Positions 42,941-64,000 of a stretch of 64,000 nt of DNA are shown here, in pieces. The notes beneath the pieces were generated by a model, which saw only the letters and a program-made list of their open reading frames with translations, made no database searches and had not been told where the DNA came from. The position numbers and the translations under genes are program-made. Within the stretch, counting starts at the first letter, position 1. The number at the start of each line of letters is the position of its first letter. Location of the stretch: assembly GCF_058153355.1 (NCBI RefSeq), contig NZ_CM177019.1; one strand, given 5' to 3'.

Positions 42941-43741
42941 TCAACGTAGCGAGCGACTTTCCATCGCCTCGATAAGCACAGCATCGTGTTTCAGCCTTTG
43001 CCATGCCTGGGTGACTTCTGCAGGAAAATCAACGTGAACGATAAAATCTCGCCCGCGTGGACCGTAGCCATCGCTATCATCGCGTAAACGTGGCAGCTCG
43101 CCAGTGAGTAGTGAGAGATAACGCTCAACCGGCCATAATCCTTGCAACGGATTAACAAAGATTACACTGTCTGCGTTGTTTCCTAGCTGAGGAACGAATC
43201 CGGGATAACTTAACCAGCGAGGTGCATCTGGATTGTCCCCGGTCATACGGCGGAACGTCGCCATCGTGCGCCGCTGCATGGTGGGGTCCTGAACAACGAT
43301 AGCCGTATGAACTCTTTCTACGGCCTGATTCAATAGCGCGATGCTAAAGCGTGCGTTTTCACCGCAGTTTGTTGACTGGTCTTCAATCCAGATTTTTTCA
43401 TGCGGAATGTGCCAGAACTGATGAGCGATATCCGCCAGGATGGTAGCTTCTGCTCTGCCAGTGGTGCGGATAGTGTTGTAGTGCGGATGCTGTGCGATGG
43501 CGCTATACAAAAAAGTTGTCGAGTGACCGATACCACCACTAATCAGTAGAGGAATTTGCTGATCGCGGGCAATCTTACATGCCGCATCGATAGTCGGCAT
43601 AACCGCATTGCCTGCAAGGATCACGCAATCGGCCTGATATGGCTCCTCTCCGGAGAAATCATCCTGCGCCAGCCACTGTCCGATAACATTTATGGCATCT
43701 ATGGTTGCCGTCGAAAGCGTCGGAAACGGGGTAATGTTCAT
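42941..43741 (-). CDS. ydcF: DUF218-family protein YdcF
   Basis: 266-aa ORF in conserved position downstream of hrpA. Confidence 0.8.
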
Positions 43742-44155: not shown

Positions 44156-45013
44156 TTAACCAGCTATACTCGCACTCGTCGGCCCTGTTTCAATACTACC
44201 CACAATATCAATAATGTGCCCCCAGAACATATCATCATCGTTATAATATAATGAATAATCTCTATTATAATCCATAGTCAACTCAACAAGATTTATTCTG
44301 CTAACAAACATATCTTCTGTAATTTCTTCATCTTCTTCATCTTGAAGCCAGTCATTGGCCAATTCAGTTAATTGTTCTGCGGCATATTGCCTAAACTCCT
44401 GATCTTTTTGTTGCATATGACTACATAAAAATCGCAGATTTTCAAAAGCCTGTTGCCAGGTATATCTATCATTCTTATCTACTTCCATAGATACAGAAAT
44501 ATTCTGATCATTCCATTTCACTTCCCCGCTAAAACAGGAGTAGTCTTTATTAAGCACGAAAGTCCCCAATTGCTGATCTTCAACAACAACTGGTTTGCGA
44601 TATTCTTTCTGAATATTGAGCAGTTCCTCACACTGAACATGACTTTCAAGAACCTCAAGAACATAAAACCGATTATAAAACTCGGCTAACTTTCCTTCCG
44701 GCACGGTCCTGTCAATCAAATCTCGTACTCTCAGGCGATATATACCACCAGACTGCATATTAAACGGCCACGCACAGCCTTGAGTTTTCTCATTTTCTTC
44801 TGTTATCAACCAGTTGAGTCGTCCATCTCCAACGTGAATTTCTCCCGTCGTCAGACTCTTCCAGGCGAGTAAGTGTTCAACCGCTGTCCAGTAATTATCA
44901 CCGTTACTCTTACCCGCGCCACCGCCAGTATCACTAAGAAGAACGATAATTTCTTCTTCTGTATCTTTAAATGTATGACTAAATTTTTTGTATTCTTCAG
45001 AATTTAAGTCCAT
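44156..45013 (-). CDS. orphan hypothetical protein (285 aa, acidic, cytoplasmic) in low-GC islet; no family assigned
   Basis: Uninterrupted 858-nt ORF with own promoter space (45014-45163) downstream of the hrpA terminator; no signal peptide or TM segment; Asp/Glu-rich with acidic stretch QDEEDEEITEDMF; AT-rich codon usage unlike flanking core genes; no K-12 counterpart at this position. Confidence 0.65.
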   Translation of the reverse strand: MDLNSEEYKKFSHTFKDTEEEIIVLLSDTGGGAGKSNGDNYWTAVEHLLAWKSLTTGEIHVGDGRLNWLITEENEKTQGCAWPFNMQSGGIYRLRVRDLIDRTVPEGKLAEFYNRFYVLEVLESHVQCEELLNIQKEYRKPVVVEDQQLGTFVLNKDYSCFSGEVKWNDQNISVSMEVDKNDRYTWQQAFENLRFLCSHMQQKDQEFRQYAAEQLTELANDWLQDEEDEEITEDMFVSRINLVELTMDYNRDYSLYYNDDDMFWGHIIDIVGSIETGPTSASIAG

Positions 45014-45222: not shown

Positions 45223-48200
45223 TTAACCGCTAATCTGTTCCATCGCCTGCAGAATACGCTTATCTGAAATCGGATAGGGTGTACCGAGTTGTTGGGCAAA
45301 ATAGCTGACGCGCAACTCCTCTATCATCCAGCGTATCTCTTTCACGTCTTCATCCTCACGACGTGCAGGCGGCAGTTTGTTGATCCATTGCTGCCACGCC
45401 TGCTGGACGTTTTCAACTTTCAGCATCTGAGCACGGTCACGGTGCGGGTCAACCGCCAGTTTTTCCAGACGCTTTTCAATCGCCTGCAAATAACGCAGCG
45501 TGTCGCCCAGGCGTTTGAAGCCATTACCAGTGACAAAACCGCGATACACCAGCCCACTCATCTGCGCTTTAATGTCAGAAAGCCCCAGCGCCATGGTCAT
45601 ATCCACCCGCCCTTTCAGGCGTTTGTTGATATTGAACACCGCTGTGAGGATTTGCTCGACCTGCTTCGCAATATCCACCACCGTGTCGTTCAGTTCAGCG
45701 CGCACTTTTTCATGCAACGCAGCAAAGCCTTCTTCCGTCCAGACCGGGCCGCCCGCCTCATCAATCAATTTATCAACACCGCAGGAGATGCAGTCGTCAA
45801 TAAGATCCAGCACTTTACCGTACGGGTTAAAGTAGAGACCCAGCTTTGCTTTATTCGGCAGTTTCTCATGCAGATATTTAATTGGCGACGGAATGTTCAG
45901 CAACAGCAAGCGACGCAAACCACGCCACATAGCCTGCTGTTGTTCCTGCGGGTTATCAAAAAGCTTAATCGCTACGCTGTCACGCTCATCCACCAGCGCA
46001 GGCCAGGCCTTCACTTTGTAGTTGCCACGTTTCTGCTCGTAGTGATCCGGTAAATTACCGAAGCTCCAGATATGTAACCCGCTTTGCTCAATACCATCAT
46101 CGGCAACGGCGGAAAGCGTTTCCTGCACTTTGCCTTTCAGGGCATCTTTCAGATCCTGTAATGAGCGCCCTTCTTTTAGCTTCTTATTTTTGTCGTCCAC
46201 CACGCGGAAGGTGATTTTCAGGTGATCAGGCACCTGATCCCAGTGCCAGTCTTCGCGGTCAACGGTAACGCCGGTCATCCGCCGTAGCTCGCGCTCAAGG
46301 CTGTCGAGCAACGGCAGTTCCAACGGCGTGACGCGACCTAAAAACGCTTCGGCGTAGTTTGGCGCGGGCACAAAATTACGCCGTACCGGTTTCGGCAACG
46401 ATTTGATTAGAGCAATCACCAGTTCACGGCGCAGGCCTGGGATCTGCCACTCAAACCCGCTTTCCTCAACCTGGTTAAGTAACGGCAGCGGAATATGCAC
46501 GGTCACACCGTCAGCATCCGCCCCCGGCTCAAACTGATAGCTTAAACGCAGCTTGAGATTGCCCTGATGCCAGAAGTTCGGGTAATCCAGCTTGCTGATT
46601 TTTTCCGCCCCTTCTTTGATCAACATGCTCTTTTCAAAGTTGAGCAAATCAGGTGTTTCGCGGCTGACTTTTTTCCACCAACTATCAAAGTGTCGTGCGG
46701 AAATCACATCGTGGCTGATGCGCTGGTCGTAAAACTCAAACAACGTTTCGTCATCCACCAGAATATCGCGGCGACGTGATTTGTGTTCCAGTTCTTCCAC
46801 TTCTGCCCGTAGTTTCAGGTTTTCACGGAAGAATGCGTGACGCGTCTGCCAGTCACCTTCCACCAGCGCGTGGCGAATAAAAAGTTCACGACACAGCGCA
46901 GGATCAATCTGGCTGTAGTTGACCTTACGCGCAGCAACAATCGGCAACCCGTAAACGGTGACTTTTTCAGTTGCCATCACCGCGCCCTGCGCCCGTTCCC
47001 AGTGCGGTTCGCTGTAGGAGCGTTTAATCAAATGCTGGGCAACTGGCTCTACCCATTCCGGATCGATGCGTGCCGCAATGCGCCCCCACAGGCGGCTGGT
47101 TTCTACCAGTTCCGCCACCATTGCCCATTTCGGCGGCTTCTTGAATAAACCAGAACCGGGGAAGATGGAGAAACGCGCGTTACGTGCGCCGGTATATTCC
47201 TGTTTATCGGCATCTTTCATGCCGATATGCGAAAGCAAACCTGTCAGTAAGGCGATGTGAATTTCGCGATACTCCGCCGGTTCGCTGTTAACCGGAATGC
47301 CAAGTTCTTTCACCACCTGGCGCAACTGGGTGTAGATATCCTGCCATTCGCGCACGCGCAGATAGTTAAGGTAATCGGTACGGCACAGGCGACGGAAGGC
47401 GTTTGAAGAGAGCGCCTTTTGCTGCTCGCCGAGATAATTCCACAGATTTACAAACGCCAGGAAGTCGGATTCTTTATCGTGAAAGCGACGATGTTTTTCG
47501 TCCGATGCCTGCTGCTTGTCCATTGGCCGCTCACGCGGGTCCTGAATAGAGAGCGCGGAAGTGATAATCATCGCCTCACGCACGCAGCCATGTTTCTGCG
47601 CTTCCAACACCATTCGCGCCAGACGAGGATCGACTGGCAGTTGCGAGAGCTGGCGACCGAGCGGCGTCAGTTTATAGGCGCTGGCCTGTTCATCAGTGGT
47701 GATCGCGCCCAGCTCTTCGAGCAGACGCACGCCATCCTGGATATTGCGTTTATCCGGCGCTTCTACAAACGGGAACGCAGCGATATCGCCCAGCCCCAGC
47801 GCGGTCATCTGCAAAATAACCGAGGCCAGGTTGGTACGCAGAATCTCCGGATCGGTAAATTCCGGGCGCGAGAGGAAATCGTCTTCGGAATAAAGACGAA
47901 TGCAGATCCCTTCTGACACACGACCACAGCGGCCTTTACGCTGATTAGCTGAAGCCTGCGAAATGGGCTCAATCGGCAGACGCTGTACTTTGGTGCGATA
48001 GCTGTAGCGGCTAATACGCGCCGTACCTGGGTCGATAACGTATTTAATCCCCGGCACGGTCAGCGACGTTTCCGCGACGTTAGTCGCCAGCACAATGCGC
48101 CGTCCGCTGTGCGACTGGAAGACGCGGTTCTGCTCGCTGTTCGAAAGCCGTGCATAAAGCGGAAGAATTTCCGTATGGCGTAAGTTCAGCTTGTTCAGCG

Positions 48201-49125
48201 CATCGGCGGTATCGCGAATTTCTCGCTCGCCGCTCATAAAAATCAGAATGTCGCCAGGGCTTTCCTGGCTCAGTTCATCTACGGCATCGAAAATCGCCTG
48301 CAACTGGTCGCGCTCGGTGTCATCAGCTTCTTCAACAATCGGGCGATAGCGCACCTCCACCGGATAGGTACGACCGGAGACTTCGATAATCGGCGCATTA
48401 TTAAAGTGGCGCGAAAAGCGTTCCGGGTCGATAGTCGCGGAAGTGATAATGATTTTTAGGTCAGGACGCCGCGGCAGTAACTCTTTCAAATAACCGAGGA
48501 GAAAATCGATATTCAGGCTGCGTTCGTGCGCTTCGTCAATAATGATGGTGTCGTACTGCATCAGCAGGCGGTCTTGCTGGAGCTCCGCCAGCAGGATACC
48601 GTCGGTCATCAGCTTGACCATCGTGTTATCACTTACGTGATCGCTGAAACGCACTTTATACCCGATGCAACCGCCCGGCTCCGTTTTCAGCTCTTCCGCA
48701 ATACGGTTCGCCACCGTTCGTGCCGCCAGACGACGCGGCTGGGTATGGCCGATCAGCCCTTTAATCCCGCGGCCCAGTTCCATACAGATTTTCGGTAGCT
48801 GAGTCGTTTTCCCGGAACCCGTTTCCCCGGCGACGATCACCACCTGGTGATCACGGATTGCTTCGAGAATGTCCTGCTTTTTCTGACTAACCGGCAAATT
48901 GTCTGGATAAGTGATTTCCGGTCGTACTGCTTCACGCAGCAGGACTTTCCCTGCCGCCTGGTCAATCTCTTTCGCCATCTCCTGGAAAATGGCCTGTTGT
49001 GCATCAGGATTTTTAACCTTCTTCACGCCGTGCAGACGGCGGGAAAAACGCAGTCTGTCACGCAGCATCAGCGAATCCAACCGTTGCTGCAAGGCCGTAA
49101 AGGTCAATTTTTGTTGTTCTGTCAT
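45223..49125 (-). CDS. hrpA: ATP-dependent RNA helicase HrpA (DEAH box)
   Basis: 1300 aa; Walker A GETGSGKTTQ, DEAH box IIIDEAHERS, helicase C-terminal and OB-fold regions. Confidence 0.95.
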   Translation of the reverse strand: MTEQQKLTFTALQQRLDSLMLRDRLRFSRRLHGVKKVKNPDAQQAIFQEMAKEIDQAAGKVLLREAVRPEITYPDNLPVSQKKQDILEAIRDHQVVIVAGETGSGKTTQLPKICMELGRGIKGLIGHTQPRRLAARTVANRIAEELKTEPGGCIGYKVRFSDHVSDNTMVKLMTDGILLAELQQDRLLMQYDTIIIDEAHERSLNIDFLLGYLKELLPRRPDLKIIITSATIDPERFSRHFNNAPIIEVSGRTYPVEVRYRPIVEEADDTERDQLQAIFDAVDELSQESPGDILIFMSGEREIRDTADALNKLNLRHTEILPLYARLSNSEQNRVFQSHSGRRIVLATNVAETSLTVPGIKYVIDPGTARISRYSYRTKVQRLPIEPISQASANQRKGRCGRVSEGICIRLYSEDDFLSRPEFTDPEILRTNLASVILQMTALGLGDIAAFPFVEAPDKRNIQDGVRLLEELGAITTDEQASAYKLTPLGRQLSQLPVDPRLARMVLEAQKHGCVREAMIITSALSIQDPRERPMDKQQASDEKHRRFHDKESDFLAFVNLWNYLGEQQKALSSNAFRRLCRTDYLNYLRVREWQDIYTQLRQVVKELGIPVNSEPAEYREIHIALLTGLLSHIGMKDADKQEYTGARNARFSIFPGSGLFKKPPKWAMVAELVETSRLWGRIAARIDPEWVEPVAQHLIKRSYSEPHWERAQGAVMATEKVTVYGLPIVAARKVNYSQIDPALCRELFIRHALVEGDWQTRHAFFRENLKLRAEVEELEHKSRRRDILVDDETLFEFYDQRISHDVISARHFDSWWKKVSRETPDLLNFEKSMLIKEGAEKISKLDYPNFWHQGNLKLRLSYQFEPGADADGVTVHIPLPLLNQVEESGFEWQIPGLRRELVIALIKSLPKPVRRNFVPAPNYAEAFLGRVTPLELPLLDSLERELRRMTGVTVDREDWHWDQVPDHLKITFRVVDDKNKKLKEGRSLQDLKDALKGKVQETLSAVADDGIEQSGLHIWSFGNLPDHYEQKRGNYKVKAWPALVDERDSVAIKLFDNPQEQQQAMWRGLRRLLLLNIPSPIKYLHEKLPNKAKLGLYFNPYGKVLDLIDDCISCGVDKLIDEAGGPVWTEEGFAALHEKVRAELNDTVVDIAKQVEQILTAVFNINKRLKGRVDMTMALGLSDIKAQMSGLVYRGFVTGNGFKRLGDTLRYLQAIEKRLEKLAVDPHRDRAQMLKVENVQQAWQQWINKLPPARREDEDVKEIRWMIEELRVSYFAQQLGTPYPISDKRILQAMEQISG

Positions 49126-57872: not shown

Positions 57873-60800
57873 TTAGAACGTTTTCTTGAAGTTCAGCATC
57901 ACGCCTTTATCGCTGATACCATCCTCTTTCCAGTGGTAAGCATCCAGATTCAGCGAACTTTCTTTGCTGCTGTACTTCACGCCGACGCTTGCCAGACTGT
58001 TGATGCCGCCGCCCTTTTGCCCATCATCGACATTAAAGTGCTGGCTGCCTGCGCCTGCCAGGCTTGCCGTGCGCTGGCTCTTCGTGTAGCTCAGGTTCGG
58101 GCCGCCTTCCAGCGTGGCGTTCGCGCTCCAGCCGTCTTTGCCTGCGTAGTCCAGCTTCAGCCCGACGATACTGTCCACCGCCGTTTCGCTGCCGCTGTTC
58201 ATGCTCAGGTTAAAGTCTCCGGCATTACGCTCCTGATAACCGCCTTCCAGCGTGTGACGCAGTTTCACACCCGCATATGGCGTGATTTTCAGCCCTTCGC
58301 GCGGTTCAAAGGTTTTCGCCCCTTCGCTGCGGAACTCCAGGTACTGCTGTTTCACGTTGGTATCCGCCGTTTTGCTAACGTCGCCGTAAGCCACCGAACG
58401 GCTGCTGTCCAGTTGGTGAATATCGTAACGCAGCGCGTTATTCCAGCTCATACCGTTGTCAAAGGACATCTGATGCTTCAGGCCAAAGAACTGGCTGTAG
58501 CCGCCTGTAACACCATTATCACCCGCTTTCTGCGCACCATCGCCGTCCAGACGGGCGATACCGTACTCCAGGCTCATGGTCTGGTTTTCGCTCAGGTCGA
58601 GGGTTTTGCGCAGCGCCAGCATGTCGTACTCGGTATTATTCCCCAGCTCTGCACGCGGATCGCCTTTCGCCACCACGTTAAATGCCAGACCGTTGCCCAT
58701 CTTCGGTGCTGCGTCCGCCAACATGCTGAAGCGGTTACTCAACACGCGGGCCTCACGAAATACCGTGGTAGCCTGGCTCCCGCTGACTTGTTTCAGCGCG
58801 CTGTTCAGCTCTGCAGTGGTGCCAACGTTCAGACTGGTATACAGCTCGTTGTTGGTGTAACCCGCATCCAGCGCTTTTGCCACGTCATTCACTGAGGCAT
58901 CCGTCGCCACATCGGTGTAGGCGTTTTTGCTCATGGTCACGTCAACGTTGCCGCTGGCGTCGGTACTGCCTGTCGCCTGCCAGACAACAGATGTCGAAGT
59001 GATCGCTTGCGCATCAGTCAGGTTGCTGCCTTGCACCACATCATCAAAGCTGACGGTTTTGTCCGCCGTTCCCGCCGCAAAATCGGTGTTGATCTCCACG
59101 CCGTTCATACTGGCGTTATTGAGCATCAGCTTACCGGCGCTACCGTCGGCGTTCGTCCCCACCACGTAACCATTGAGGTTGTTCATGCCATCGTTGCGGC
59201 TAACGGAAGAAGAATGGGTGCCGTCGTATGGCGTAATGGTGGGTTCTTCCGGCGCGGTAAAGTCGACATAGTGCACTTCCGTACCGTCTCCGCCTTCGCC
59301 ACTACCCTCCATCGCCGTGCCAGATTGTTTAATTAATCCGGAACCATTCACGCTGTCGTCAATATAAACAGTGCCGTTGTTAACAATATGACCATTGCTC
59401 CCGAGCTTGCTGAAAGCCCAGGAGTTATTGGCGTAGATATTAATCGTACCGTTGTTTTCAACCACACCATCCGCTTTCGCGTCCGATGCTAATTGCATTC
59501 CAACCATACCTGTATGCGAAGTGCCTTCGCTACCAATATTGATAGTGCCATTGTTGACCATTTTTGCGCTGCCGTGCGCATTCATGGCGATGGTATTATT
59601 TTTATCAATATTGATAGTGCCATCGTTAATTGCCCGGCTACCGGCGTTATTATTTGGCGTCGTAACCTGGCCGTTAATCACACCTGTCGTACCGTTATAC
59701 AACGTATGCCCATTACCGCTGGTAGCGATATCAGCATCACCATTCACTGTACCCCAGTTGTTGAAATGCCCAGCCCAAAGTCCGTTATCAAGAAGATCGA
59801 CAACACCACCGACCAGGTTATTAAAGGTCGCGTTTTTATCAACCGAACCACTGTGAACCGTTCCTGCGTTATTGAAAGTGGCTGCGGCAGAAAAATTCAC
59901 TTTATTGACCGTTCCATCCGCTTCGTTATTCATCACGGCAGAAGCTGAGGCCCCTTTCCAGGCTGTTACCGTCCCGGCGTTATAAAACGTACTGGCCCAT
60001 TGTTCAACAGTGTTCATGGTGCCGGAATTGTTGATAACAGAACCCGCAACGGTTGTACCTACCAACCCGGTCACCGTACCTTCGTTAGTGAACACGCCGC
60101 CATCCACAGAAACGGTTTTTGTCGTGCCCTTATTGGTGTATTCCCCACCGGTTGCGATATCAACCTCATTAATACTGCCCGTGGTTTCATTGACCAAACG
60201 GCCAAAGTCAGCCACGGTGACAGGCCCCCCGGTAACCGTACCCGCGTTGGTTACCAGGGTTTCGGCGGTTGCCGTGATATCAGTCGTACCGCCATATGAA
60301 GACAGGTTAAGCGTTTCCCCGTCAGCCGAAATAATGTCACCATTTCTCCAGCTTAATGAAACAAACCCGTCAGTCGGGTTATAGGCGTTATTGTCCTGGC
60401 ATTTCCCAAAAGTACAGATGGTTCCGTAATTAACAATAGTCCCGCTGCCATCGTTATAGAACGCCTGCCCGTTTTCGGCATTGATATTGATGATGCCAGT
60501 CTGATCATTAATCGCAGTGGCACCATTGTAAACAGCCATGCCGACCAATTTATTTGGCCCCAGCGTATCATCATCATTTTCATTTACTTCCAGATTTATA
60601 GTTCCCTGGTTAATAATAATGTTACCTGGCTTCATCGCGGCCATACCGGCACCGGAATTATAGAGTGTTATTTCACCACCCTGCTGGTTAATGGCGGTAG
60701 AATTAACGCTGGCACCAGAACTGTCTGTACCCACAGCCATCCCGACAGCATAATCTTTGGCGCTGTCATGAGCGATATTGGACGCCAGACTGGAAGTATC

Positions 60801-63371
60801 GTTTTCATCAACCCATAATGCGTCAATGAAAATCTTACCCATATTGTCAATGGTTGAATTATTGGAGGCCAGCATGCCAACACTCCCCCGGCCGTACATT
60901 TGGATCTCACCGGCAGTATTATTTGAAGCGGTGCCATTGTTGCCTGCCGTCATCCCCGTCAGACTAATGACTTGATTATTAAAAATTAAAGGGTCACTCA
61001 AACCTTGAGCGTTCAGACTATTGAAAATACGTCCCTGCGCGAGTACCTTACTGGTGATGGCACTGTTATTAACAACTCGACCACCATAGACGCTCAAATA
61101 CGCAGAACTAGCAGAGTCTGATGTATTCCCCTCTACGCCGTAGATAGAAATCGTTACGTTGTTATTATTTACAGCTAGCGACTCTTCACCAGTAGCCCTG
61201 GCAAAGCCAATATTACCCAGTTCTACATCACCATTATTTATCATCTGCGAACCGGAATTCACCAGTACAACCTGTGATGTGTCACTATTATAATGATCAA
61301 ATGTATTTATATCTTTTAGGATAAAAGTGGCGTTGCGGCCAAGTTCTAAATGGGCTCGGTTATTCAGTTGAATGATATCGCCTAATCCAAGCGGAAAAAC
61401 ACCACTGATTGTTGAATCCCCATTTAGATACAGAGTAGAGTGCCCATCGATTTTGATAACAGGCGTATCGCCATAACCATTACGTTTTAAAGCAGGTGTG
61501 GAGCCATCCTGTAGAGTATTTTCTTCGCCAGCTAAATGGATACCACCATTAATTTCGACGGTATTACCGTCACCCGACACAACCAGACCATTAATATTTT
61601 CCTGGCTGCCATCCATTTCATTATAGATACGAGAAGTGACTTCACTGTCAGCAACAACGGTAAGATTGCCATTTAATACGATATTATTGTCGTGTCCCTG
61701 CACCTGAATGCCAACAGAAGGGGTAAAAAAGTCATTTATTGAATGCTCTCCGGCCTGATTTTTATCCACCAGAATATTACCGGTAATTTCAACTTCATTG
61801 CCATCACCGGCTACATTTACCCCTGTCGCAACACTGCCGGTCACATTAAGCTCATTTGTCGCCAGCGTCATGGCGTTATTATTTCCAGAGACATCCAGAC
61901 CGGTTGAATAATCCCCTACATCCACACGGCCAGCCAGAGAAATCAGACCATCATCTCCGATGATGCGAATCCCGGTACTGAAATTATCAGCAATGATGTC
62001 CCCCACATTGATAAGGGTAGAATGATTACCCTCAATCAGAATCCCTGTCGCATTGGCCTCTGAACTACCATTACTGACGGAAATATCCCCCCTGTTAATG
62101 AACGTCGACGCATCACCACTGAGAGAAACACCCTGCGAATTTTCATCCACGACCGTTATATTTCCTTTGTTGCTGACGATCGCGCCATTACCCTCAACAT
62201 CAATACCCCGTGCAGCATTGCTAACGTATAAATCCCCTTCCTGTATAACCGTCGCATTATTACCAACGATTTTGCTGCCCGTTGAATTTTGCCCATCAAC
62301 CGTCATATGTCCTTTATTATCGGTCCTGACATCATTACCGCTAATAACGGCCCCTATTCCGCCGTTATTGACAGTGGAGTCGCCAGTGTTATTTAAGATT
62401 GTACGATCGCCATTGACGATAACCGCCGTGCCAGCATCGACCACCGTCTGACCGTTATTATTGATGGTTATATTATCGCCGGTCAGGATACCGACCACCG
62501 AACCTTCACCGACAGCCTCTGTTTTACCCTCGTTTGTCAGCGCAATGTTGTTACCATTAATCATCATCACCGTGCCGCCATTCAGGGCCGTGTTACCGCC
62601 CTGGTCAGTGATAATCGCATCATTAACGGTAATTATTCTGCCCGTTGTTCCATCAGACACGACACTGGCTAACTGTGTGACGTGGAGTTTACCTTCGTCA
62701 TCGTAGCGCCATTCCATATCACCTGTGGTACTCACACCACTAAACATGGCGGTATGAGTCTCTTCATGGTTTTCCCACTCAGTCACAATGGTTTTTCGGC
62801 CATCTTTTGCCGTCAGCGTGTAGCTACCATCTTCATTTTGGGTATAAGTGAACGTCGCCCCGCGAATCTTCAGGGTTTGCGCGTCCTCGTCCCATGTCAC
62901 ATTGTTATCAAAGACAACGGGTTCTGTTCTCGGGGGGTCAACATCATCACCGCTATTGTCGGGTGGAGTAACATTACCGCCGTTATCTGGCTTTACAGGT
63001 ATACCTGAATCTTCATCACTGGGAACGGGTAGCGGTAGAGGGCCATTATCATCTGGCGGTATGGGCTGGGGAAAAGAAGAGTGAGCAGAATGATCATTGT
63101 CATGAGACAATTCAATCACTGCGAGTGTTGCCAGTACCGCCGTGGCACCTAATGCCAGTAACGAGCTGAAACCATTATTTGTAACAACAGCACATTTTTC
63201 TGGCACTGTTTTCAACTTCGTTGACGGTCGGGCGTGCCCTTCTGACTGACATGTCATTTGAGAGCTTCTGCGCATACTGTCTGCACTCTCGCCTTCTGTT
63301 ATTTCCGCCCCCCAGCTTTGGCCACTTAACGCTATAGCGATACACGCTGATAATAACGTTTTCTTTTGCAT
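57873..63371 (-). CDS. ydbA: large AIDA-I/Ag43-type autotransporter adhesin YdbA, apparently intact
   Basis: 1832-aa uninterrupted ORF; signal peptide MQKKTLLSACIAIALSGQSWGA; long Gly/Asn/Thr-rich passenger with degenerate beta-helix repeats; C-terminal beta-barrel ending ...LNFKKTF; no IS sequence inside. Confidence 0.85.
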   Translation of the reverse strand: MQKKTLLSACIAIALSGQSWGAEITEGESADSMRRSSQMTCQSEGHARPSTKLKTVPEKCAVVTNNGFSSLLALGATAVLATLAVIELSHDNDHSAHSSFPQPIPPDDNGPLPLPVPSDEDSGIPVKPDNGGNVTPPDNSGDDVDPPRTEPVVFDNNVTWDEDAQTLKIRGATFTYTQNEDGSYTLTAKDGRKTIVTEWENHEETHTAMFSGVSTTGDMEWRYDDEGKLHVTQLASVVSDGTTGRIITVNDAIITDQGGNTALNGGTVMMINGNNIALTNEGKTEAVGEGSVVGILTGDNITINNNGQTVVDAGTAVIVNGDRTILNNTGDSTVNNGGIGAVISGNDVRTDNKGHMTVDGQNSTGSKIVGNNATVIQEGDLYVSNAARGIDVEGNGAIVSNKGNITVVDENSQGVSLSGDASTFINRGDISVSNGSSEANATGILIEGNHSTLINVGDIIADNFSTGIRIIGDDGLISLAGRVDVGDYSTGLDVSGNNNAMTLATNELNVTGSVATGVNVAGDGNEVEITGNILVDKNQAGEHSINDFFTPSVGIQVQGHDNNIVLNGNLTVVADSEVTSRIYNEMDGSQENINGLVVSGDGNTVEINGGIHLAGEENTLQDGSTPALKRNGYGDTPVIKIDGHSTLYLNGDSTISGVFPLGLGDIIQLNNRAHLELGRNATFILKDINTFDHYNSDTSQVVLVNSGSQMINNGDVELGNIGFARATGEESLAVNNNNVTISIYGVEGNTSDSASSAYLSVYGGRVVNNSAITSKVLAQGRIFNSLNAQGLSDPLIFNNQVISLTGMTAGNNGTASNNTAGEIQMYGRGSVGMLASNNSTIDNMGKIFIDALWVDENDTSSLASNIAHDSAKDYAVGMAVGTDSSGASVNSTAINQQGGEITLYNSGAGMAAMKPGNIIINQGTINLEVNENDDDTLGPNKLVGMAVYNGATAINDQTGIININAENGQAFYNDGSGTIVNYGTICTFGKCQDNNAYNPTDGFVSLSWRNGDIISADGETLNLSSYGGTTDITATAETLVTNAGTVTGGPVTVADFGRLVNETTGSINEVDIATGGEYTNKGTTKTVSVDGGVFTNEGTVTGLVGTTVAGSVINNSGTMNTVEQWASTFYNAGTVTAWKGASASAVMNNEADGTVNKVNFSAAATFNNAGTVHSGSVDKNATFNNLVGGVVDLLDNGLWAGHFNNWGTVNGDADIATSGNGHTLYNGTTGVINGQVTTPNNNAGSRAINDGTINIDKNNTIAMNAHGSAKMVNNGTINIGSEGTSHTGMVGMQLASDAKADGVVENNGTINIYANNSWAFSKLGSNGHIVNNGTVYIDDSVNGSGLIKQSGTAMEGSGEGGDGTEVHYVDFTAPEEPTITPYDGTHSSSVSRNDGMNNLNGYVVGTNADGSAGKLMLNNASMNGVEINTDFAAGTADKTVSFDDVVQGSNLTDAQAITSTSVVWQATGSTDASGNVDVTMSKNAYTDVATDASVNDVAKALDAGYTNNELYTSLNVGTTAELNSALKQVSGSQATTVFREARVLSNRFSMLADAAPKMGNGLAFNVVAKGDPRAELGNNTEYDMLALRKTLDLSENQTMSLEYGIARLDGDGAQKAGDNGVTGGYSQFFGLKHQMSFDNGMSWNNALRYDIHQLDSSRSVAYGDVSKTADTNVKQQYLEFRSEGAKTFEPREGLKITPYAGVKLRHTLEGGYQERNAGDFNLSMNSGSETAVDSIVGLKLDYAGKDGWSANATLEGGPNLSYTKSQRTASLAGAGSQHFNVDDGQKGGGINSLASVGVKYSSKESSLNLDAYHWKEDGISDKGVMLNFKKTF

Positions 63372-64000
63372 GAGAAATCCTTTTCAATGAATGACATTTC
63401 AAATAATAAAATATGAGTAATAGATAAGAAATAGCCACAGGCTGTGTCATGATTTAATGCCTGCTCTTGAAATTTTATTTAGCAATCCCAGAACATTCAA
63501 CTTAATTAGTATTTCGAAACCTCAATGTAGACACATAAAAAACAAATTATTCGATTACTTAGGCTATTTGTTGCATTAATACACATCCTCTAACAATAAT
63601 CAGACAAAAAGCAATGTCAGCGTCAAATTGGGTAGCTGATTCATATTACTGACCACTCCGGAAATTCATTCATCGTGAAAATATTAACATTTCAACCATG
63701 TTCCATTTAATCAACCCACTGAAAATCTGGAGGTTATCTACTGCGGTTTGTTGTTGACTGCCCCTGACAGGTTTACCAGGCGTTGACAGAAGATGAGGCT
63801 TGCAAGATGCTAAAAACAATGTGGTGTTACAAGCAATCCCATAAACCTCGTAACTTCACTTAAATGAGCGATGCCGTCCATATTTGGGTTGACTATAAAA
63901 ACCCTTAATATTGAGGTTGATGATGATATTCATGATGGCATTGGAAAAATAGGACACCCATAAAATATCTATACAGCCTTTAAATTAAATCATTGAAATA

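Follow-up and report, generated by a model that had tools for sequence, protein, structure and literature searches.

The locus examined here raises the question of what lies between the surface-adhesin gene ydbA and its upstream neighbour, and whether the DNA in that gap controls ydbA. A previous description of this DNA (the sequence-only reading) pointed to over 600 bp of AT-rich non-coding sequence upstream of ydbA, considered it typical of H-NS-bound, phase- or stress-regulated adhesin promoters, and proposed that it could also hide a small RNA or leader peptide. In the stretch of 64,000 nucleotides that was analysed (the window), the gap begins at 63372, and everything from there to the window end lies upstream of ydbA. 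The strain EC42405 (NZ_CP043414), which is 100% identical over the spacer, reveals the remaining 17 bp up to the ydbL stop codon, so the complete ydbL-ydbA intergenic spacer spans 63372-64017 and measures 646 bp. Over the first 1.5 kb of ydbA, however, identity to EC42405 is only 99.8%, so the window comes from a close relative and not from that record itself. Both flanks of the spacer, the ydbL stop and the ydbA start, are on the minus strand. ydbL is the final gene of the ydbH-ynbE-ydbL operon and is co-directional with ydbA. None of the 17 carrier genomes has an annotated feature inside the spacer. The non-coding gap of more than 600 bp is thus real.

The high A+T content was confirmed. The spacer has 34.8% G+C compared to 48.8% for the whole window, and a G+C content of 36% or less was found in only 0.6% of the 646-bp windows across the 64 kb, placing the spacer among this lowest fraction. 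Several A-tracts had been remarked on, and we counted 11 runs of at least four A or T, though shuffled sequences gave 9.8 +/- 2.9, so base composition accounts for their number. As had been stated, the spacer encloses no complete ORF of 60 codons or more; the longest ORF with a start codon encodes 49 aa and the longest stop-free frame has 61 codons. DNA of 65% A+T is expected to lack long ORFs by chance, so their absence alone is not evidence. A 91-codon ORF on the minus strand (63175..63450) starts in the spacer and lies mostly within ydbA in another frame; it is almost certainly spurious. The spacer is a real but ordinary non-coding gap before a surface-adhesin gene. The most AT-rich stretch of the window lies elsewhere, at 44156-45013 on the minus strand (about 34% G+C), where a 285-aa ORF with Pfam DUF7021 and DUF2262 sits between a ydcF-like gene (42941..43741) and hrpA (45223..49125) and looks like a putative inserted gene.

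Downstream of the spacer, ydbA (57873..63371, minus strand) is an intact BigA/YdbA-type autotransporter gene encoding 1832 aa. Pfam detected both the BigA_N beta-barrel and the BigA beta-sandwich (BigA_beta) domains (PF25784, 89.6 bits; PF25783, 91.3 bits), and RefSeq names the product an autotransporter or BigA/YdbA-domain protein. At E<=0.001 these were the only two Pfam domains listed, the classical autotransporter beta-domain being absent from the list; the RefSeq label nevertheless gives YdbA an autotransporter beta-barrel domain. The allele is very divergent: over its N-terminal 450 aa it shares only 42-55% identity with those of K-12 and SMS-3-5 and with the closest partial database match. 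A search for homologous proteins with this N-terminus returned partial proteins only, with no useful context, and a contig scan of genomes with the same N-terminus gave no match. The closest relative found among species representatives was in Pseudocitrobacter faecalis (60% identity over residues 134-450). Two further observations concern the protein itself. The linker after the signal peptide of SMS-3-5 YdbA contains a long tandem array of the heptapeptide GGNTPDD (alignment columns about 110-225); the other alleles have a much shorter array or none, making this a length-variable repeat within the protein. Among the carriers of the window allele, variation in ydbA is about half as frequent at codon positions 1 and 2 as at position 3, a pattern suggestive of relaxed or diversifying selection acting on the passenger domain.

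The spacer proved to be rare and tied to its ydbA allele. Among 5,426 complete E. coli genomes, 17 carry it, each in one copy and at 98.4-100% identity, and blastn in distant mode detected no match beyond these 17 carriers in E. coli, plasmids or phages. The 5' 1.5 kb of ydbA was found in exactly the same 17 of the 5,426 genomes (92.9-99.8% identity), so that spacer and gene 5' end form one linked cassette. The layout of ydbA, 646 bp and ydbL was identical in all carriers inspected. By comparison, 2,435 genomes have the K-12-type spacer and 47 have that of the SMS-3-5 type. In K-12, a 19-kb fea-tynA-paa island separates ydbL from ydbA; here the feaR-feaB-tynA-paaZ...paaY cluster (K-12 1446000-1465500) is absent and ydbA directly follows ydbL. 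The stretch from paa to ydbA, which lies between the core genes ydbH-ynbE-ydbL and ynbC, has been described as a region of heterogeneity (PMC4951805). Identity among the window type, K-12 and SMS-3-5 drops from ~98% to 87-90% from ydbH to ydbL towards the junction (locus L001, 12719-15400), a gradient typical of DNA next to a hot spot of recombination or diversity. At this hypervariable junction the spacer represents a rare allele specific to its lineage, a property that the sequence-only reading overlooked.

We compared the spacer with those of other ydbA loci. A scan of species-representative genomes added the loci of Pseudocitrobacter faecalis, the E. coli representative, Escherichia sp. 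E1V33 and E. whittamii, and an alignment-based scan yielded five loci whose spacers had no match to that of the window. The seven ydbA-upstream spacers compared come from six lineages or species, and all fall within 326-646 bp and 25-35% G+C. In a blastn-type comparison the only alignable pair among the seven was that of the two E. coli paaY-ydbA spacers, from K-12 and the species representative. None of the others is as long as the window spacer or as rich in G+C, so some of its length may be filler without function. The same gene pair, ydbL and ydbA, encloses the spacer in four types (window, SMS-3-5, Escherichia sp. E1V33 and E. whittamii), and BLASTN between pairs of these ydbL-ydbA spacers gave no match at E<=1e-3. 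A switched intergenic region is defined, for a gene pair, by the same flanking genes enclosing spacers without a significant BLASTN match (Thorpe et al. 2018, PMC5890482); for horizontal regulatory switching, this paper, which presents Piggy, cites Oren et al. 2014. With one gene pair and mutually unalignable spacers across four types, the ydbL-ydbA spacer is a switched intergenic region by this gene-pair definition. It differs from such regions in two respects. ydbA itself has diverged strongly (42-55% aa identity at the N-terminus), and its alleles and spacers are strictly linked, so that the whole cassette of spacer and gene 5' end is exchanged rather than the spacer alone. In addition, the 129 bp closest to ydbA are still homologous to the SMS-3-5 type.

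This proximal block (63372..63500, minus strand) is ~70% identical to the SMS-3-5-type spacer by sensitive local alignment, with a score of 51 compared to 22.3 +/- 2.6 for shuffled sequences, and probably contains the core promoter and 5' UTR of ydbA. A Shine-Dalgarno sequence, AAGGA (63378..63382, minus strand), lies 6 nt before the ydbA ATG, and the ribosome-binding region is the only upstream element common to all the ydbA loci compared. Promoter prediction produced a candidate pair, TTGAAT-17-TAAAAT (63472..63500, minus strand), which would give a 5' UTR of roughly 90-95 nt. The SMS-3-5 type retains the -35 hexamer of this pair together with the adjacent 13-mer ATTGCTAAATAAA. A second promoter-like pair, CTGACA-16-TATTGT (63593..63620, minus strand), lies ~220 nt upstream of the ATG and is a chance-level match. 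Both pairs are oriented towards ydbA. The number of promoter-like sites was no higher than chance (3, compared to 3.1 in shuffles), and in a simple -35/-10 scan that found two sites in the spacer, 17% of equal-sized windows had at least as many. The position of the ydbA promoter is therefore a prediction, with TTGAAT-17-TAAAAT as the best candidate for its core.

The remaining, distal part of the spacer (63501..64000 in the window, extending to 64017; 517 bp) had no detectable homologue beyond its own lineage. Apart from the 17 carrier genomes, its only relatives were two contigs of the same lineage from metagenomes. These two, both with the same E. coli locus and haplotype, were all that was recovered when metagenomes were scanned with a distal 24-mer. 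It contains a core of 42% G+C at about 63600-63900 that is unlike its flanks. Polymorphism was determined in seven carriers representing the full identity range. Within the spacer, 17 of 646 sites (2.6%) were variable, compared to 60 of 493 third-codon positions (12.2%) in ydbL, ynbE and ydbH (Fisher p=2.5e-10) and 14.7% of third-codon positions in the 5' part of ydbA. The spacer is thus ~5x less polymorphic than neighbouring third-codon positions, and its distal and proximal parts are similar in this respect (2.7% and 2.3% variable sites). Low polymorphism fits purifying selection on regulatory sequence. The pairwise pattern among carriers is mosaic, however, and the flanking core genes can recombine species-wide, so that a young, recombining haplotype rather than constraint is an equally simple explanation.

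We searched the spacer for a hidden gene. A conserved coding gene was sought by homology with Pfam, a protein look-up and phmmer, and none was found: Pfam gave no match on eight stop-free frames; eight small spacer ORFs were all absent by exact look-up from a collection of 15 billion proteins and had thus never been called as a gene; and phmmer with 12 concatenated stop-free frames gave 0 matches at E<=0.001 against 1.84 billion representatives, a search with limited sensitivity for 30-60-aa peptides. The spacer was also compared by blastn and tblastn with the K-12 fea-tynA-paa island, with the remainder of the window and with other ydbA loci, and gave no match. The 17 variable sites were evenly distributed along the spacer. 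When those in the two longest frames were counted by hand, there was no third-codon-position bias, which argues against the proposed leader peptide. In the 40-aa plus-strand ORF and the 61-codon frame they fell mostly at codon positions 1 and 2, and one variable site in this check abolished a stop codon. The proposed small RNA fared no better. Rfam 15 gave only a chance match (best 16 bits against a threshold of 80, E=5), only 1 of 58 windows had a z below -2 in sliding 100-nt folds of both strands, and the regions just after ydbL and just before ydbA folded no better than shuffles. No intrinsic terminator was found in the spacer, including the region after ydbL, so ydbA could be read through from the ydbH operon.

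Phase-variable adhesin control regions are well known in E. coli: agn43 is controlled by Dam and OxyR, pap by Dam and Lrp, and fimS by inversion. The ydbL-ydbA spacer resembles them in lying upstream of an adhesin-type gene and differs in having none of their defining sequence features. There were 0 GATC (Dam) sites in the 646 bp, where about 2 would be expected, and no tandem or simple-sequence repeat that could slip, the longest homopolymer being A6. Perfect 9-10-bp inverted repeats flank 525-599 bp and are out of register with each other; we estimate that they are at chance level, about one such repeat being expected per 650 bp of AT-rich DNA. All 17 genome copies and the 2 metagenome contigs had the same orientation in a single colinear match, and no recombinase gene adjoins the locus. 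These results speak against the phase-regulated promoter suggested previously. Motifs of other regulators were of little help: CRP, OxyR, Lrp and RcsAB gave only weak matches with 2-4 mismatches, which carry no evidential weight, and nothing usable was found for the RfaH ops element, sigma-54, IHF or Fis. The spacer contained no REP sequence and was single-copy in every carrier genome. A mobile element was considered and rejected, since there were no repeat signatures, the spacer was single-copy and every copy was colinear. As the searches for repeats, GATC sites, RNA and coding sequence were all negative, the signatures of phase variation, a small RNA, a leader peptide and a mobile element are absent from the spacer.

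H-NS is a plausible regulator. H-NS-silenced adhesin promoters are found at cryptic autotransporter and chaperone-usher fimbrial operons of E. coli. Like them, the spacer is a long AT-rich region before a large, variably present adhesin gene; unlike them, silencing of the window allele is suggested by composition and analogy only. The counterpart by position is the K-12 paaY/ydbA spacer, which is one of 78 'promoter islands' and was H-NS-bound in two ChIP data sets (Panyukov & Ozoline 2013, PMC3661553). Such islands are defined with PlatProm as having at least 8 promoter-like start points per 100 bp over at least 300 bp. Both spacers occupy the same position before a ydbA/bigA-type autotransporter gene, and both are long, AT-rich and tied to horizontally variable DNA. 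Of the island-type traits, the window spacer has an A+T content well above average over at least 300 bp and an association with a horizontally variable gene. In contrast, the two share no sequence homology and, in a crude scan, the window spacer had no excess of promoter-like sites. In K-12 the spacer comes after paaY, measures 330 bp at 25% G+C and includes ynbG (21 aa), whereas the window spacer comes after ydbL and has 646 bp and 35% G+C; H-NS binding is documented for the K-12 spacer only. The H-NS high-affinity motif tCG(t/a)T(a/t)AATT is matched at 9 of its 10 positions by one or two overlapping sites at 63545..63560, a weak signal. Across the window there were 31 such 9/10 matches compared to 20.5 +/- 4.9 expected. 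Because the K-12 spacer is a positional counterpart and not a homologue, we infer H-NS binding of the window spacer from A+T content, the 9/10 motif match and this analogy, and regard it as plausible.

The analysis thus shows a rare, AT-rich and non-coding spacer that is tied to its ydbA allele and shares homology, over part of its length, with one other spacer type. The reading that we favour, with a probability of roughly 0.6, is that it is a two-part non-coding regulatory spacer, with a proximal promoter and UTR and an AT-rich upstream region of the H-NS-silencing type, carried in a rare ydbA-linked cassette. In this arrangement, the ribosome-binding site lies in 63372-63500, which would also provide a 5' UTR of about 90 nt and, probably, a sigma-70 core promoter for this ydbA allele. 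The AT-rich distal part, of untraceable origin (63501-64017), separates ydbA from the co-directional ydbH-ynbE-ydbL operon. Most likely, H-NS-type silencing of a horizontally exchanged adhesin gene would nucleate and spread on this distal part, and ydbL transcription would end within it. The spacer moves with the ydbA allele as a single rare cassette and is one of several mutually unalignable 'switched' spacers at the hypervariable junction. A regulatory role, as the sequence-only reading had proposed for this DNA, is thus still the best reading of a non-coding region upstream of an adhesin-type autotransporter gene, while the phase regulation, small RNA and leader peptide that went with it are not supported.

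Two other explanations deny the distal part or the whole spacer a regulatory role of this kind. The distal 517 bp may be a functionless scar, decayed junction DNA left by a lost gene or by the gain or loss of an island, with only the proximal promoter being of consequence. The documented heterogeneity of the locus (PMC4951805) and the absence of the fea-tynA-paa island here are consistent with this, as are a distal part without a homologue, its 42% G+C core unlike the flanks, and the fall in ydbH-ydbL identity from 98% to 87-90% towards the junction, as at a recombination hot spot. We nevertheless consider a scar unlikely, though it deserves some weight: there was no trace of the K-12 island genes at the DNA or protein level and no protein homologue for any frame, and variable sites are no more frequent in the distal than in the proximal part (2.7% compared to 2.3%) and ~5x rarer there than among adjacent third-codon positions. 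Alternatively, ydbA could be co-transcribed with ydbH-ynbE-ydbL, with the 646 bp being an untranslated inter-cistronic region, perhaps subject to Rho-dependent attenuation. That the four genes share one strand and that ydbL has no intrinsic terminator after it would suit such an operon. However, ydbA follows paaY rather than ydbL in K-12-type genomes, suggesting that ydbA alleles generally bring their own upstream region; the proximal block with its promoter-like pair is kept in the SMS-3-5 type; and the sense RNA is G-rich and not C-rich, unlike a typical Rho-utilisation site. Co-transcription therefore seems improbable.

Other explanations place something further in the spacer. It might conceal a small RNA or small protein akin to the 21-aa YnbG of the K-12 paaY-ydbA spacer, where ynbG is carried on the strand opposite ydbA. 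Spacer ORFs of 26-49 aa do exist, and carriers differ less in the spacer than at synonymous-type sites nearby. We judge this very unlikely, since the spacer resembles neither ynbG nor the K-12 spacer, none of its ORFs has a homologue or has ever been called as a gene, the variable sites in the 40-aa ORF and the 61-codon frame fall, by hand count, mostly on codon positions 1 and 2 with one removing a stop codon, and the Rfam, folding and terminator searches were all negative. Least credible is a phase-variable switch, operating by Dam/OxyR or Dam/Lrp methylation, slipped-strand repeats or an invertible promoter segment. Many adhesin and autotransporter promoters, such as those of agn43, pap and fim, are phase-variable, and perfect 9-10-bp inverted repeats do lie around 525-599 bp. 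Against this stand the lack of GATC sites (0, about 2 expected) and of any tandem or simple repeat (longest homopolymer A6), the out-of-register arrangement and roughly chance number of the inverted repeats, the lack of an adjacent recombinase gene, and the single orientation seen in 17 genomes and 2 metagenome contigs. We also regard as doubtful, at the level of a tentative suggestion, that the distal 517 bp form a lineage-specific functional non-coding element, for example a long-range silencing or anti-silencing platform for an allele-specific regulator, an unstructured transcript or an insulator. If the distal part were functional, an insulator would uncouple ydbA from the ydbH-ynbE-ydbL operon, and selection would explain the ~5x lower polymorphism despite the lack of a homologue elsewhere.

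Returning to the favoured two-part regulatory spacer, its sequence is previously undescribed and of a known kind, that of the AT-rich, H-NS-associated regions upstream of variable adhesin genes. Its importance beyond the locus is small and its implications are ordinary. It provides an example of upstream regions of adhesin genes being swapped wholesale between E. coli lineages while their general character is kept: long, AT-rich and probably H-NS-silenced. If the low polymorphism reflects selection, the spacer would be a small test case for constraint on regulatory sequence without a homologue, and would also raise the question of whether the ydbA spacer types differ in their expression of this poorly studied adhesin.
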